Source of the DNA: Escherichia coli
GTDB lineage: Bacteria > Pseudomonadota > Gammaproteobacteria > Enterobacterales > Enterobacteriaceae
Length of the DNA: 31,624 nucleotides
Reading direction: 5' to 3' (one strand)
Assembly: GCF_003334765.1 (NCBI RefSeq)
Contig: NZ_QOWT01000039.1
A program made the position numbers and the translations under genes. Below the pieces are notes generated by a model. The model ran no database searches, was not told where the DNA came from, and saw nothing but the letters and a program-made list of their open reading frames with translations. Of the stretch, positions 5,751 through 15,423 are shown one piece after another. Each line of letters opens with the position of its first letter. Position 1 is the stretch's first letter.

Positions 5751-5849
5751 GCCGGATGCGGCGTGAACGCCTTATCCGGCCTACAAAAACATGCAAATTC
5801 AATAGATTGCAGAGATTATGTAGGCCTGATAAGCGTAGCGCATCAGGCA
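5751..5849. repeat. BIME / RIP-type element: two inverted REP sequences around a central spacer
   Basis: REP gccggatgcggcgtgaacgccttatccggcctaca (5751-5785) and inverted REP tgtaggcctgataagcgtagcgcatcaggca (5819-5849). Spacer contains ttcaatagattg, resembling an IHF site. Confidence 0.8.
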
Positions 5850-12840: not shown

Positions 12841-14193
12841 ATGACTAAACACTATGATTACATCGCCATCGGCGGCGGCAGCGGCGGTATCGCCTCCATC
12901 AACCGCGCGGCTATGTACGGCCAGAAATGTGCGCTGATTGAAGCCAAAGAGCTGGGCGGCACCTGCGTAAATGTTGGCTGTGTGCCGAAAAAAGTGATGT
13001 GGCACGCGGCGCAAATCCGTGAAGCGATCCATATGTACGGCCCGGATTATGGTTTTGATACCACTATCAATAAATTCAACTGGGAAACGTTGATCGCCAG
13101 CCGTACCGCCTATATCGACCGTATTCATACTTCCTATGAAAACGTGCTCGGTAAAAATAACGTTGATGTAATCAAAGGCTTTGCCCGCTTCGTTGATGCC
13201 AAAACGCTGGAGGTAAACGGCGAAACCATCACGGCCGATCATATTCTGATCGCCACAGGCGGTCGTCCGAGCCACCCGGATATTCCGGGCGTGGAATACG
13301 GTATTGATTCTGATGGCTTCTTCGCCCTTCCTGCTTTGCCAGAGCGCGTGGCGGTTGTTGGCGCGGGTTACATCGCCGTTGAGCTGGCGGGCGTGATTAA
13401 CGGCCTCGGCGCGAAAACGCATCTGTTTGTGCGTAAACATGCGCCGCTGCGCAGCTTCGACCCGATGATTTCCGAAACGCTGGTCGAAGTGATGAACGCC
13501 GAAGGCCCGCAGCTGCACACCAACGCCATCCCGAAAGCGGTAGTGAAAAATGCCGATGGTAGCCTGACGCTGGAGCTGGAAGATGGTCGCAGTGAAACGG
13601 TGGATTGCCTGATTTGGGCGATTGGTCGCGAGCCTGCCAATGACAACATCAACCTGGAAGCCGCTGGCGTTAAAACTAACGAAAAAGGCTATATCGTCGT
13701 CGATAAATATCAAAACACCAATATTGAAGGTATTTACGCGGTGGGCGATAACACGGGTGCAGTGGAGCTGACACCGGTGGCAGTTGCAGCGGGTCGCCGT
13801 CTCTCTGAACGCCTGTTTAATAACAAGCCGGATGAGCATCTGGATTACAGCAACATTCCGACCGTGGTCTTCAGCCATCCGCCGATTGGTACTGTTGGTT
13901 TAACGGAACCGCAGGCGCGCGAGCAGTATGGCGACGATCAGGTGAAAGTGTATAAATCCTCTTTCACCGCGATGTATACCGCCGTCACCACTCACCGCCA
14001 GCCGTGCCGCATGAAGCTGGTGTGCGTTGGATCGGAAGAGAAGATTGTCGGTATTCACGGCATTGGCTTTGGTATGGACGAAATGTTGCAGGGCTTCGCG
14101 GTGGCGCTGAAGATGGGGGCAACCAAAAAAGACTTCGACAATACCGTCGCCATTCACCCAACGGCGGCAGAAGAGTTCGTGACAATGCGTTAA
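12841..14193 (+). CDS. gor: Glutathione reductase (Gor), 450 aa
   Basis: ORF 12841..14193. N-terminal FAD-binding GGGSGG and redox-active disulfide motif [13 protein letters not shown]. Confidence 0.96.
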
Positions 14194-14199
14194 ATGTTA

Positions 14200-14230
14200 A
14201 AGGGCTAAGAGTAGTGTGCTCTTAGCCCTT
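14200..14230. terminator. 12-bp perfect hairpin between convergent gor and dinQ (likely shared terminator)
   Basis: Stem aagggctaagag / ctcttagccctt with loop tagtgtg. Flanking T/A tracts are weak. Confidence 0.5.
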
Positions 14231-14246
14231 AATTACGTTTCCGCTA

Positions 14247-14330
14247 TCAGTTCAGAAGCTGAAGCAGAAAGCGGATCAGTTCCAGCAGCGCAATTAACGC
14301 CCCTAGAACGATGATTGCTTTATCAATCAC
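14247..14330 (-). CDS. dinQ: DinQ, 27-aa hydrophobic type I toxin peptide (SOS-inducible)
   Basis: Reverse-strand ORF GTG ATT GAT AAA ... AAC TGA encodes VIDKAIIVLGALIALLELIRFLLQLLN. Too short for the ORF track. Lies between gor and arsR as in E. coli, with a LexA box upstream. Confidence 0.8.
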   Translation of the reverse strand: MIDKAIIVLGALIALLELIRFLLQLLN

Positions 14331-14521
14331 CCGTTTTCTCCATGCGATGGAGTGAGAATGCATCCGCTTACTCATCCACTGCCTGTCACGGCGCATGTCT
14401 CATTGTTAGATAAGAACTCTCTCACTCCGGCCAGAGCATCAGTTAACGGCACCACCCGTACTTCTGACCAGGACTTTGAAAGCGTTTATGCGCATTGCCA
14501 GAGTGAAAATGCCTCAGAGCT

Positions 14522-14541
14522 AACTGGATAATCATACAGTA
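14522..14541. promoter_or_regulatory. LexA box (SOS operator) in the dinQ promoter region
   Basis: aaCTGgataatcataCAGta fits the CTG-N10-CAG LexA consensus and sits about 190 nt upstream of the dinQ ORF on its strand. Confidence 0.65.
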
Positions 14542-14603
14542 CATGCAGGTTATAAAACCAGCACGTCCTTGCAATAGTTTCAGTATGGTATTAGCATTGA
14601 TGC

Positions 14604-14687
14604 GTTAGATGATGGCTATCTCACTCCAGTCAGAGCCACCAACTCAGGGCTGGAAAGTAAAAAACCGACGCAAAGTCGGTTTTTTTA
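14604..14687 (+). ncRNA. agrA: AgrA small RNA (DinQ-associated antisense-type sRNA, paralog of AgrB)
   Basis: Putative promoter TTGCAA (14569-14574), 17 nt, TAGCAT. Ends at hairpin ccgacgcaaagtcgg plus T7 (14665-14687). Near-duplicate of the agrB module. 5' end is approximate. Confidence 0.7.
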
Positions 14688-14834
14688 CATCCGGATTCGG
14701 ACAAGGCTTAATATGACGATGACCCAGTGAAAGTATATAAATCGTCACTGCGATATATACCGAAGTGCTCCCTCCGCCAGCTGAAGAAATCGCTAATTCT
14801 TGCAATGTTAGCCACTGGCTAATAGTATTGAGCT

Positions 14835-14917
14835 GTTAGATAAGAACTCTCTCACTCCAGCCAGAGCCACCAACTCAGGGCTGGAAAGTAAAAAACCGAC
14901 GCAAAGTCGGTTTTTTT
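14835..14917 (+). ncRNA. agrB: AgrB small RNA (antitoxin sRNA complementary to the dinQ mRNA leader)
   Basis: Promoter TTGCAA (14800-14805), 17 nt, TAGTAT (14823-14828). Body tgttagataagaactctctcactccagccagagcc is near-identical to + strand 14403-14437 inside the dinQ transcript region, so it is complementary to dinQ mRNA. Ends at hairpin plus T7 (14895-14917). 5' end is approximate. Confidence 0.75.
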
Positions 14918-14999
14918 ACGTCCTGATTCAGACCTCCTTTCAAATGAATAGCCAACTCAAAATTCACACCTATTACCTTCCTCTGCACTTACACATTCG

Positions 15000-15025
15000 T
15001 TAAGTCATATATGTTTTTGACTTAT
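15000..15025. promoter_or_regulatory. Putative ArsR operator / ars promoter region
   Basis: Inverted repeat aagtca (15002-15007) ... tgactt (15018-15023) about 50 nt upstream of the arsR ATG. Confidence 0.5.
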
Positions 15026-15069
15026 CCGCTTCGAAGAGAGACACTACCTGCAACAATCAGGAGCGCAAT

Positions 15070-15423
15070 ATGTCATTTCTGTTACCCATCCAATTGTTCA
15101 AAATTCTTGCTGATGAAACCCGTCTGGGCATCGTTTTACTGCTCAGCGAACTGGGAGAGTTATGCGTCTGCGATCTCTGCACTGCTCTCGACCAGTCGCA
15201 GCCCAAGATCTCCCGCCACCTGGCATTGCTGCGTGAAAGCGGGCTATTGCTGGACCGCAAGCAAGGTAAGTGGGTTCATTACCGCTTATCACCGCATATT
15301 CCAGCATGGGCGGCGAAAATTATTGATGAGGCCTGGCGATGTGAACAGGAAAAGGTTCAGGCGATTGTCCGCAACCTGGCTCGACAAAACTGTTCCGGGG
15401 ACAGTAAGAACATTTGCAGTTAA
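15070..15423 (+). CDS. arsR: Arsenical resistance operon repressor ArsR (ArsR/SmtB family), 117 aa
   Basis: ORF 15070..15423 with CAGGAG SD. Metalloid-binding ELCVCDLC motif ahead of the HTH. Confidence 0.95.
   Translation: MSFLLPIQLFKILADETRLGIVLLLSELGELCVCDLCTALDQSQPKISRHLALLRESGLLLDRKQGKWVHYRLSPHIPAWAAKIIDEAWRCEQEKVQAIVRNLARQNCSGDSKNICS

Follow-up and report, generated by a model that had tools for sequence, protein, structure and literature searches.

The interval between gor (12841-14193, plus strand) and arsR (15070-15423, plus strand) is almost certainly, with a probability of about 0.97, the chromosomal dinQ-agrAB type I toxin-antitoxin locus of E. coli K-12. Positions are those of the window, by which we mean the whole 31,624-nucleotide stretch of Escherichia coli DNA that was analysed. 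Positions 14150-15070 (921 bp) are 100% identical to E. coli K-12 records, and because of this identity, the published experiments on dinQ-agrA-agrB of K-12 (Weel-Sneve et al. 2013, PMC3567139; Kristiansen et al. 2016, PMC5066626) apply directly to the window. The DNA, the flanking genes, the peptide, the small RNAs, the LexA box and the leader elements are all the same as in the K-12 locus, with no difference within the window. No sequence difference from K-12 was found in the leader, the ORF or agrB, and nothing in the sequence is at odds with the identification.

Identity of the locus and prior knowledge

An earlier note, made from the sequence alone, had described this interval as an SOS-controlled type I toxin gene, dinQ, with duplicated agrA and agrB genes, and the naming is correct, with NCBIfam, RefSeq, Rfam and the literature in agreement. 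The locus is conserved in 5423/5426 complete E. coli genomes. It is also already known: RefSeq, NCBIfam, Rfam and T1TAdb all include it and experiments have established its mechanism, so that the novelty implied by the note was overstated. The same holds for the statement that gene callers miss the locus entirely, which is outdated: the 84-nt dinQ CDS is annotated by RefSeq/PGAP in all of the sampled E. coli genomes that were listed, and Rfam has an AgrB family. The agr RNAs are absent from the RefSeq feature tables examined. Published northern blots, UV induction and toxicity in an agrB deletion cover the checks proposed in the note, all with favourable outcomes, and the literature describes an agrB deletion as UV-sensitive and as rescued by a stop codon in dinQ. 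The identification itself adds nothing to what was known, but it does show that a complete small-gene regulatory module can be read from the bare sequence with its coordinates right.

Toxin gene, antitoxin RNAs and leader switch

The dinQ CDS occupies 14247..14330 on the minus strand, with a GTG start at 14330-14328 and a TGA stop at 14249-14247, and encodes a single-helix inner-membrane toxin of 27 aa, VIDKAIIVLGALIALLELIRFLLQLLN. This is the 27-codon GTG-initiated reverse-strand frame noted previously between gor and arsR (14330->14247), and it corresponds to RefSeq dinQ WP_001295215.1. The peptide matches NCBIfam NF041472 toxin_DinQ, 'damage-inducible type I toxin DinQ' (equivalog), at 54 bits (E = 1.4e-14, cut-off 30), and a GGAG is found 6 nt upstream of the GTG. 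Previous work on the identical sequence established that the toxic product is the 27-aa GTG-initiated peptide (peptide V), that DinQ is toxic, located in the inner membrane and depolarises the membrane, and that the antitoxin RNA relieves toxicity (PMC3567139). The primary transcript (14196..14524, minus strand) is ∼330 nt long, with the +1 at 14524 taken from published numbering and the 3' end approximate. If the +1 is 14524, then 6/6 published elements (U16-C28, G94-G106, U167-U178, A182-G187, SD G184-G187 and G88-A119) start and end with the stated bases (numbering of PMC5066626). A hairpin with a 14-bp stem at 14200..14230, detected by a terminator scan between the gor and dinQ stop codons, forms a shared bidirectional terminator for gor (plus strand) and dinQ (minus strand), and the dinQ terminator was placed a few nt past the gor stop in the published study (PMC3567139).

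The LexA operator (SOS box) lies at 14522..14541, extending from -18 to +3 of the dinQ +1, and covers the likely -10 element, TATGAT (14536->14531, minus strand), which was assigned by its position; by eye, the -35 region is poor. On the minus strand the box reads TACTGTATGATTATCCAGTT, with CTG-N10-CAG at 14524-14539, and it adjoins the published dinQ +1 (14524). The bare CTG-N10-CAG motif was rejected as evidence for a LexA box, with 19 occurrences in the window, no better than chance, and was replaced by a score against the 20-mer consensus, TACTGTATATATATACAGTA. By this measure the operator is the single best 20-mer in the window on either strand (15/20, with the next best at 14/20), and the LexA box claimed at this position is present, though the bare motif on which the claim had been based is unspecific. 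LexA operators over the dinQ promoter, LexA binding and UV induction are known from the literature, with a heterology index of 4.83 for this operator and of 13.82 for a second, weak one (PMC3567139).

The plus strand carries two tandem modules of ∼85 nt, each with a TTGCAA-N17-TAG(T/C)AT promoter and an identical terminator, all as the note had reported, and the RNA bodies are 84 nt long. The agrA promoter, TTGCAA-N17-TAGCAT (14569..14597, plus strand), has its hexamers at 14569-14574 (TTGCAA) and 14592-14597 (TAGCAT), and its start was mapped by primer extension (PMC3567139); it serves the agrA sRNA (14605..14688, plus strand), which comprises a 5' antisense region, an internal stem-loop and an intrinsic terminator, and is the non-cognate copy in the window's strain. 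The agrB promoter, TTGCAA-N17-TAGTAT (14800..14828, plus strand), with TTGCAA at 14800-14805 and TAGTAT at 14823-14828 (PMC3567139), serves the agrB sRNA (14836..14919, plus strand), which genetics and biochemistry identify as the working antitoxin of the window's strain (PMC3567139, PMC5066626). The modules are 231 nt apart and share 88% identity over 114 nt, the RNA bodies are alike at 78/84 positions, and the terminators of agrA (14659-14686) and agrB (14890-14917) are identical, AAAAAACCGACGCAAAGTCGGTTTTTTT, forming an 11-bp hairpin (RNAfold). Both modules pass the gathering score (40) of Rfam RF02891 AgrB, a covariance model that combines sequence and two stem-loops, with agrB at 108.4 bits and agrA at 106.2 bits, each across the full model (1-84 of 84). 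On the strand opposite to dinQ and 45-395 nt past its +1, the agr genes are divergent from it and do not overlap it. Each promoter agrees with only 8/12 consensus positions and is weak by consensus, so neither was listed by a generic promoter scan with a threshold of 9/12. A generic terminator scan also missed the agr terminators, presumably because A/T runs extend the stem and leave a T tail that is too short. These misses are a limit of the tools and not evidence against the features.

The AgrB target site in the dinQ leader (14404..14437, minus strand; published as nt 88-119; PMC3567139, PMC5066626) makes up the third direct copy of the 34-nt 'agrAB repeat', with leader element 2 (14419-14431) inside it. 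Alignment of the three cores, with 14404-14437 as the reference copy, gave 33/34 (97%) for agrB (14834-14867) and 26/34 (76%) for agrA (14603-14636), which bears out the view that the agrB body nearly matches the leader and that the agrA core is more diverged. With the target, agrB forms 30/31 Watson-Crick pairs, and agrA forms 24 Watson-Crick and 4 G-U pairs with 3 mismatches, of 31. The prediction of the agrB:dinQ duplex that the note had recommended returned -62.7 kcal/mol for the first 40 nt of agrB with dinQ RNA, far below the -24.0 +/- 2.9 kcal/mol of shuffles, and the value for agrA was -47.2 kcal/mol.

In the leader, element 1 (U16-C28; 14497..14509, minus strand) keeps the full-length RNA locked by pairing with element 2, and element 3 (U167-U178; 14347..14358, minus strand) pairs either with element 4, leaving the Shine-Dalgarno sequence (SD) closed, or with element 2, leaving it open (PMC5066626). 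The SD itself, GGAG (dinQ nt 184-187; 14338..14341, minus strand), is sequestered in hairpin 3:4 of the +1 RNA and open in the +44 RNA, as determined by a structure model and SHAPE (PMC5066626). The +44 processing site falls at 14481 (minus strand) when computed from +1 = 14524, and cleavage there was shown experimentally to remove element 1 and yield the only translatable dinQ mRNA (PMC3567139). Calculated duplex energies of -19.7 (1:2), -16.9 (2:3) and -6.9 kcal/mol (3:4) make mutually exclusive pairings possible, and RNAfold predicted a fully paired SD in the +1 RNA and 3/4 SD nucleotides unpaired in the +44 RNA.

LexA control, +44 processing, the leader structure switch, and AgrB-triggered SD closure with RNase III cleavage have been published for this exact sequence (PMC3567139, PMC5066626), and the present analysis itself shows that the sequence is identical, that toxin and RNAs belong to the known families, and that complementarity and predicted folds agree with the switch. 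In the published experiments, LexA occupies its operator at the dinQ promoter, and damage to the DNA de-represses the ∼330-nt minus-strand transcript. This primary transcript is translationally inert, with element 1 paired to element 2 such that the 3:4 hairpin hides the SD. Loss of the first 44 nt frees element 2 for element 3, opening the SD and allowing translation of the 27-aa DinQ from its GTG, and DinQ depolarises the membrane and lowers ATP. The constitutive 84-nt AgrB pairs via its 5' ∼34 nt with leader nt 88-119, replacing element 1, re-closing the SD hairpin and making an RNase III substrate, so that DinQ is kept off; AgrA, a tandem duplicate with 8 differences in the 34-nt core in the window's strain, does not repress.

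Two other explanations of these features were weighed. If the short hydrophobic ORF and the intergenic hairpins were products of chance without function, the 19 bare CTG-N10-CAG motifs in the window and the generic promoter and terminator scans, which did no better than on shuffles, would be as expected, but the matches to the curated families (Rfam AgrB, NCBIfam toxin_DinQ) lie far above their thresholds, the agrB:dinQ duplex energy is far outside the shuffle distribution, and 5423/5426 complete E. coli genomes conserve the locus. We assign this explanation no probability, as direct experimental evidence in published work has already refuted it. The 27-aa frame is also the 3' part of a 49-aa ATG ORF (14396-14247, minus strand), which appears in the mechanical ORF list, and longer constructs (II-IV) were likewise toxic on over-expression (PMC3567139). 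It is nevertheless highly improbable that the 49-aa ORF rather than the 27-aa peptide specifies the functional product: translation occurs from the +44 RNA only, the product has the size of peptide V, the GGAG is positioned 6 nt 5' of the GTG, the 27-aa form is the one modelled by RefSeq and NCBIfam, and a stop at Lys4 in the 27-aa frame restores UV resistance (PMC3567139).

Strain variation in the agr copies

The repeat contains a 9-nt hypervariable patch (dinQ nt 105-113; 14412..14420), with equivalents at 14611-14619 in agrA and 14842-14850 in agrB, which we compared among 17 complete genomes and 69 metagenome contigs. In every examined complete genome that keeps the dinQ promoter, the dinQ patch matches one agr copy; K-12-like strains have the second copy as the cognate one, and about the same number of other lineages have the first. 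The distance from the dinQ patch to the nearest agr patch of the same genome averaged 0.77 nt, compared with 2.68 +/- 0.46 nt for random re-pairing, and 0/10,000 permutations reached the observed value (13 distinct haplotypes from 16 genomes). From this co-variation, we infer that the patch determines which antitoxin pairs with the toxin. It would define at least four specificity classes, and it sits where internal pairing constrains the leader stem least. Identical 9-nt alleles occur at dinQ and agr positions alike, which suggests that gene conversion between the three direct repeats keeps toxin and antitoxin matched.

These comparisons raise the possibility, which we put forward tentatively and at slightly below even odds, that the two agr genes are alternative antitoxin slots and not a working gene with a decayed duplicate, a reading that includes the patch classes, gene conversion and repeat deletions. 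In K-12, both transcripts are constitutive and ∼85 nt long with mapped starts, and agrB, not agrA, is the working antitoxin (PMC3567139, PMC5066626). The published K-12 view, that agrA is a decaying, functionless duplicate of agrB, would make the strain differences neutral drift without regulatory bearing, and seems to us rather unlikely. It fits the findings in K-12 that agrA had no effect on dinQ SHAPE or in vitro translation (PMC5066626) and that its deletion had no UV phenotype (PMC3567139), and it fits the count of only 24/31 Watson-Crick pairs between agrA and the target in the window. However, neutral drift is hard to reconcile with the short patch distances (0.77 vs 2.68 +/- 0.46 nt, 0/10,000 permutations), or with the better match of the first agr copy in 7/11 two-copy complete genomes examined, where it forms 28-29 Watson-Crick pairs of 31 vs 25-26 for the second. 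Moreover, over the 34-nt core a single position separates K-12 agrA from the sole agr copy of UTI89, which pairs with UTI89 dinQ at -59 kcal/mol, and at an identity of at least 99% the first-copy-cognate haplotype was present in 1252 records vs 1598 for the K-12 type. The sequence comparisons suggest that the two copies are alternative antitoxins, the cognate role falling to the first copy in some other lineages of E. coli. One patch haplotype, carried for example by AR437 and E2865, reads AATGGCATT, AATGGCATT and AAGAACTCT, and there the first agr copy would be the expected antitoxin if the genes are alternative slots.

Recurrent deletions arise by recombination between the repeats, with the loss either of one agr copy or, in ST131 for example, of the entire dinQ promoter. 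In ∼14% of complete genomes, ST131 among them, the promoters of dinQ and of the agr genes are lost together with the LexA box, and the dinQ CDS annotated in such promoter-deleted genomes is probably silent; a major pathogenic clone, ST131, would then probably be without an expressible dinQ, though the CDS is annotated. For the fusion-junction query, only the band of at least 99% identity (760) was used, because single-copy strains contribute two-piece places that raise the count at a coverage of at least 80% (1253). A second 'place' per genome was considered as another dinQ-like locus and rejected, because single-copy strains show one place, and it is most simply the off-diagonal agrA/agrB alignment. 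Copy number at the 69 metagenome loci was not trusted, because short-read assemblers can skip the 231-nt repeat loop (shared segment ∼55 nt), and complete genomes were used instead. Seven metagenome loci combine the K-12 dinQ with a single agrA/agrB hybrid copy, which would be non-cognate.

Between agrA and agrB lies a degenerate duplicate of coding sequence from the gor 3' end (14712..14781, plus strand), equivalent to gor 13927-14002 (blastn, 76% over 55 nt, E = 9e-08). The same relic is found in O157, in E. coli contig L121 and in E. albertii, and suggests that an insertion at the 3' end of gor brought in the dinQ-agr module. A scan of contigs with the 17-base pattern GCCACCAACTCNGGGCTG was too unspecific, with nearly all of its 120 stretches being chance matches in GC-rich genomes, and was useful only for E. 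albertii (L089) and one E. coli contig (L121).

Term searches of PMC3567139 and PMC5066626 did not bring up cognate-copy variation, the deletions or the gor relic, and the co-variation of the patch with a lineage-dependent cognate copy, the deletions by repeat recombination and the relic may be undescribed. The K-12 rule that agrB is the antitoxin and agrA is inert may be strain-specific, and dinQ-agr could be a natural model for how a trans-encoded RNA antitoxin and its target stay matched, which is of modest specialist interest.

Comparison with other toxin-antitoxin loci

The dinQ-agrAB locus works like tisB/istR-1, and is not a member of the TisB/IstR-1 family. Both have a LexA-repressed toxin gene with an inert primary mRNA that is activated by 5' processing (at +42 in tisB and +44 in dinQ), a divergent, constitutive, non-overlapping antisense RNA whose duplex with the mRNA is cleaved by RNase III, and a small inner-membrane peptide that depolarises the cell (PMC5066626). 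In contrast, TisB depends on a ribosome standby site and DinQ on a four-element structure switch that opens the SD, and the dinQ locus has two antitoxin paralogues. No homology to TisB/IstR-1 was found, with NCBIfam returning only toxin_DinQ and Rfam only AgrB in the region.

The dql (dinQ-like) genes, found on Enterobacteriaceae chromosomes and plasmids, share a homologous peptide and 5' UTR architecture with dinQ (PMC5066626). The copy on an ETEC plasmid encodes MIDKAIIVLGALISLLELIRYLLQLMG, and its AgrB-like element scores 70 bits. The peptides have diverged, however, and in the ETEC plasmid locus the AgrB-like element is at the position of the leader repeat, with no separate upstream gene.

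Duplicated paralogues are also a feature of zorO-orzO and zorP-orzP of E. coli O157, a tandemly duplicated type I toxin-antitoxin system in which non-overlapping antisense RNAs lie upstream of the toxin and specificity is set by a few nucleotides of the pairing region. There, the whole toxin-antitoxin pair is duplicated, whereas the dinQ locus duplicates the antitoxin only, and it is the single toxin target that appears to switch.

Layout and identity of the locus

The interval between gor (12841-14193, plus strand) and arsR (15070-15423, plus strand), at window positions 14196-14935, carries dinQ on the minus strand and the small RNA genes agrA and agrB on the plus strand. The dinQ reading frame comprises 27 codons from a GTG start (14330-14250, stop 14249-14247), with GGAG located 6 nt 5' of the GTG, and encodes VIDKAIIVLGALIALLELIRFLLQLLN, which matches NCBIfam NF041472 'damage-inducible type I toxin DinQ' with 54 bits (curated cut-off, 30 bits). 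The two agr modules lie 231 nt apart, and each contains a promoter (TTGCAA-N17-TAGCAT at 14569-14597 for agrA; TTGCAA-N17-TAGTAT at 14800-14828 for agrB), an 84-nt body (14605-14688 and 14836-14919) and an identical hairpin-T7 terminator. The bodies are identical at 78 of 84 positions, and both modules span the entire Rfam RF02891 (AgrB) model, scoring 106 bits for agrA and 108 bits for agrB (gathering score, 40). By megablast, the sequence from 14150 to 15070 is present in 5,423 of 5,426 complete E. coli genomes, and is 100% identical to that of K-12 and laboratory strains. The window is E. coli DNA of the K-12 type, and the locus between gor and arsR is dinQ-agrA-agrB. The locus is already known, and the earlier note, which had named dinQ and duplicated agrA/agrB here, observed it correctly: all the features it listed are present with only minor coordinate refinements, and its naming is supported by the family scores and the K-12 identity. 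Its statement that gene callers miss the locus does not hold for the dinQ coding sequence, which is annotated in RefSeq in all records listed from the megablast search; for the agr RNAs, no entry was found in the RefSeq feature tables examined.

In some RefSeq genomes, a 57-aa 'hypothetical protein' (WP_001296816.1, WP_001297979.1) is annotated opposite the dinQ leader. Its counterpart in the window is a 59-aa plus-strand ORF (14352-14531; 259-432 in the homologous loci L076 and L077), and this annotation over the dinQ 5' UTR is probably a spurious call. Other plus-strand Rfam matches above the gathering score were GadY (30204-30317, 150 bits), the sRNA ES205 (24354-24425, 105 bits) and ES036/CssrF (5787-5827, 42 bits), consistent with the acid-resistance region that follows the ars operon in K-12.

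Antisense pairing and the leader switch

A 34-nt core is found as three direct repeats on the plus strand, with the reference copy located inside the dinQ leader (14404-14437), one copy in agrA (14603-14636) and one in agrB (14834-14867). As the earlier note had proposed, the agrB copy is nearly perfect relative to that of the leader (97% identity), and the agrA copy is more diverged (76%). The leader repeat may itself be a degenerate third agr copy, the remnant of a cis-encoded antisense gene. Duplex prediction also bore out the proposed antisense relationship, with the first 40 nt of agrB pairing to dinQ RNA at -62.7 kcal/mol, compared with -24.0 +/- 2.9 kcal/mol for shuffled controls; the first 40 nt of agrA gave -47.2 kcal/mol. 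Pairing between agr and dinQ reaches 14502 discontinuously, with a value of -87 kcal/mol for agrB (RNAduplex). Separately, the plus strand opposite the leader (14406-14491) gave a weak full-length AgrB match (22.7 bits, E = 0.5).

The LexA box described upstream of dinQ is present at 14522-14541, reading TACTGTATGATTATCCAGTT on the minus strand, and is the top match to the LexA 20-mer consensus in the whole window (15/20; runner-up, 14/20), where the bare CTG-N10-CAG pattern occurs 19 times. Because the sequence is identical to that of K-12, published K-12 experiments apply directly. In those studies, the ∼330-nt dinQ transcript was LexA-controlled (operator heterology index 4.83), agrA and agrB transcripts were constitutive with mapped starts, UV sensitivity resulted from deletion of agrB, not agrA, and was suppressed when a stop codon interrupted the 27-aa frame, dinQ was translated only from the +44 processed RNA, and DinQ lay in the inner membrane and reduced membrane potential and ATP (Weel-Sneve et al. 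2013, PMC3567139). A later study (Kristiansen et al. 2016, PMC5066626) described a four-element structure switch in the leader, and showed that AgrB, once bound to nt 88-119, closes the SD hairpin again and induces cleavage by RNase III. When the published numbering was mapped onto the window, dinQ +1 fell at 14524, and with this start all published elements begin and end on the stated bases of the minus strand: element 1 at 14509-14497, element 2 at 14431-14419, element 3 at 14358-14347, element 4 with the SD at 14343-14338, the AgrB site at 14437-14406 and the GTG at nt 195. RNAfold paired the whole SD in the +1 RNA but left most of it open in the +44 RNA, and the 1:2, 2:3 and 3:4 duplexes had values of -19.7, -16.9 and -6.9 kcal/mol, respectively; the predicted folding agrees with the published switch logic. 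The present analysis shows identity, family membership, complementarity and folding, and the literature provides LexA binding, the transcripts and how they are processed, the toxicity and the cleavage by RNase III.

Deletions between repeats and a gor relic

Recombination between agrA and agrB produces a 231-nt deletion that leaves one hybrid agr copy, found in MLI108K2 (L002), UTI89 (L003) and LR14 (L084). A larger, 430-nt deletion arises when the repeat in the dinQ leader recombines with the last agr copy. Equivalent to window ∼14405-14834, it eliminates both agr promoters along with the dinQ promoter, the LexA box and the leader's first ∼118 nt, and is found in ESBLEC_HM24 (L004), FORC_082 (L085) and an O25b:H4-ST131 isolate (L086). 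Among 60 rows evenly spaced among 5,535 matching records, the locus was full-length in 41, had a single agr copy in 8, was a promoterless fusion in 9 and consisted of plasmid fragments in 2; the ST131-type 430-nt fusion junction was present at at least 99% identity in 760 records of complete genomes, O25b:H4-ST131 among them. The dinQ coding sequence is still annotated by RefSeq in fusion genomes, where it is probably not expressible.

The ars operon is truncated beside the agr genes in UTI89, ESBLEC_HM24 and a draft E. coli contig (L121). The first two are without arsR and arsB, with arsC following the last agr, and in L121 a deletion extends from the agrB promoter into arsB. These truncations make the ars-side edge of the locus a deletion hotspot as well.

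The stretch between agrA and agrB contains a decayed copy of coding sequence from the 3' part of gor (14712-14781, corresponding to gor 13927-14002), with 76% identity over 55 nt (E = 9e-08) followed by colinear CCGCCAGC. The relic also follows the first agr copy in O157:H7 (L005 1163-1215, 81% over 53 nt), the draft contig L121 (1417-1468, 79% over 52 nt) and E. albertii (L089 4093-4122, where what survives is the final 30 nt of gor, stop codon included, 83%). The true 3' end of gor and an old, displaced copy of it therefore flank the dinQ-agr module, a footprint suggesting that the module arrived by insertion into the gor 3' end or by duplication of that end. No mention of the relic was found in the published accounts of the locus examined.

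A hypervariable patch and the cognate agr copy

Alignment of the locus across genomes revealed a 9-nt hypervariable patch in the middle of the 34-nt repeat, at plus-strand positions 14412-14420 in the dinQ leader (dinQ nt 105-113), 14611-14619 in agrA and 14842-14850 in agrB. Five groups of alleles were seen: AAGAACTCT / AAGAGCTCT; AATGGCATT; GATGGCTAT / GATGGCATT / GATGACTAT; GACGACTAT; and GTGGGCATT. Based on folding and the published structure (PMC5066626), the patch separates the conserved a/a' helix from the 1:2 duplex of stem S1. It is the imperfectly paired part of this stem, a position that would account for its variability.

Among 17 complete E. coli genomes, all those bearing a dinQ promoter have an agr copy with 28-30 of 31 Watson-Crick pairs to their own dinQ, and the copy that is cognate, i.e., the best match to the strain's own leader, varies between genomes. 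The patch thus co-varies between the dinQ leader and one of the agr copies. In K-12-like strains this is the second copy (agrB position), as in the window (K-12 type) and in the homologous loci L078, L081 and L083, and in many other lineages it is the first (agrA position), as in L075, L076, L077, L079, L080, L082 and O157:H7. Where the first copy is cognate among L075-L082, pairing of the second shows 5-6 mismatches, and its duplex is weaker by 10-14 kcal/mol. O157:H7 has no close match to dinQ in either copy: the first pairs at 28 Watson-Crick positions and has 2 mismatches, and the second pairs at 26, has 4 mismatches and forms a duplex weaker by ∼5.5 kcal/mol. At at least 99% identity, 1,598 records carry the K-12-type locus and 1,252 the L075-type, with the first copy cognate. 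In a pool of 16 genomes with a dinQ target (14 complete E. coli, E. albertii and L121; 13 distinct haplotypes), the dinQ patch differed from the nearest agr patch of the same genome by a mean of 0.77 nt, compared with 2.68 +/- 0.46 under random re-pairing; the observed mean was reached by 0 of 10,000 permutations in a test that ignores phylogeny.

The core of K-12 agrA differs at 1 of 34 nt from that of the one agr gene left in UTI89, which pairs with that strain's own dinQ allele at -59 kcal/mol with two G-U wobbles, and agrA therefore looks more like an antitoxin for another dinQ allele than like a decayed gene. Since the same 9-nt alleles are found at both dinQ and agr positions, we infer that the three direct repeats undergo gene conversion and that this keeps toxin and antitoxin matched. 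That the cognate copy is lineage-dependent, that the match is upheld by gene conversion, and that repeat deletions recurrently remove the toxin promoter are, taken jointly, real and undescribed with a probability that we place slightly under one half (about 0.45). Term searches of PMC3567139 and PMC5066626 gave no mention of variation in the patch or the cognate copy, and full-text literature searches for dinQ with ST131 or phylogroup returned nothing relevant. T1TAdb partly anticipates the variation, in that, where two antisense RNAs are predicted, it selects the one with the greater stability (PMC8594479).

Plasmids carried 127 places matching the 921-bp locus query. On the ETEC plasmid NZ_CP122721.1 (L087 1023-1271), a dinQ-like gene encodes MIDKAIIVLGALISLLELIRYLLQLMG, and an AgrB-like element (70 bits) adjoining the ORF occupies the position of the leader repeat. 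This plasmid arrangement, which might represent either a functional cis-antisense or another deletion product, is like the fusion architecture found on the chromosome.
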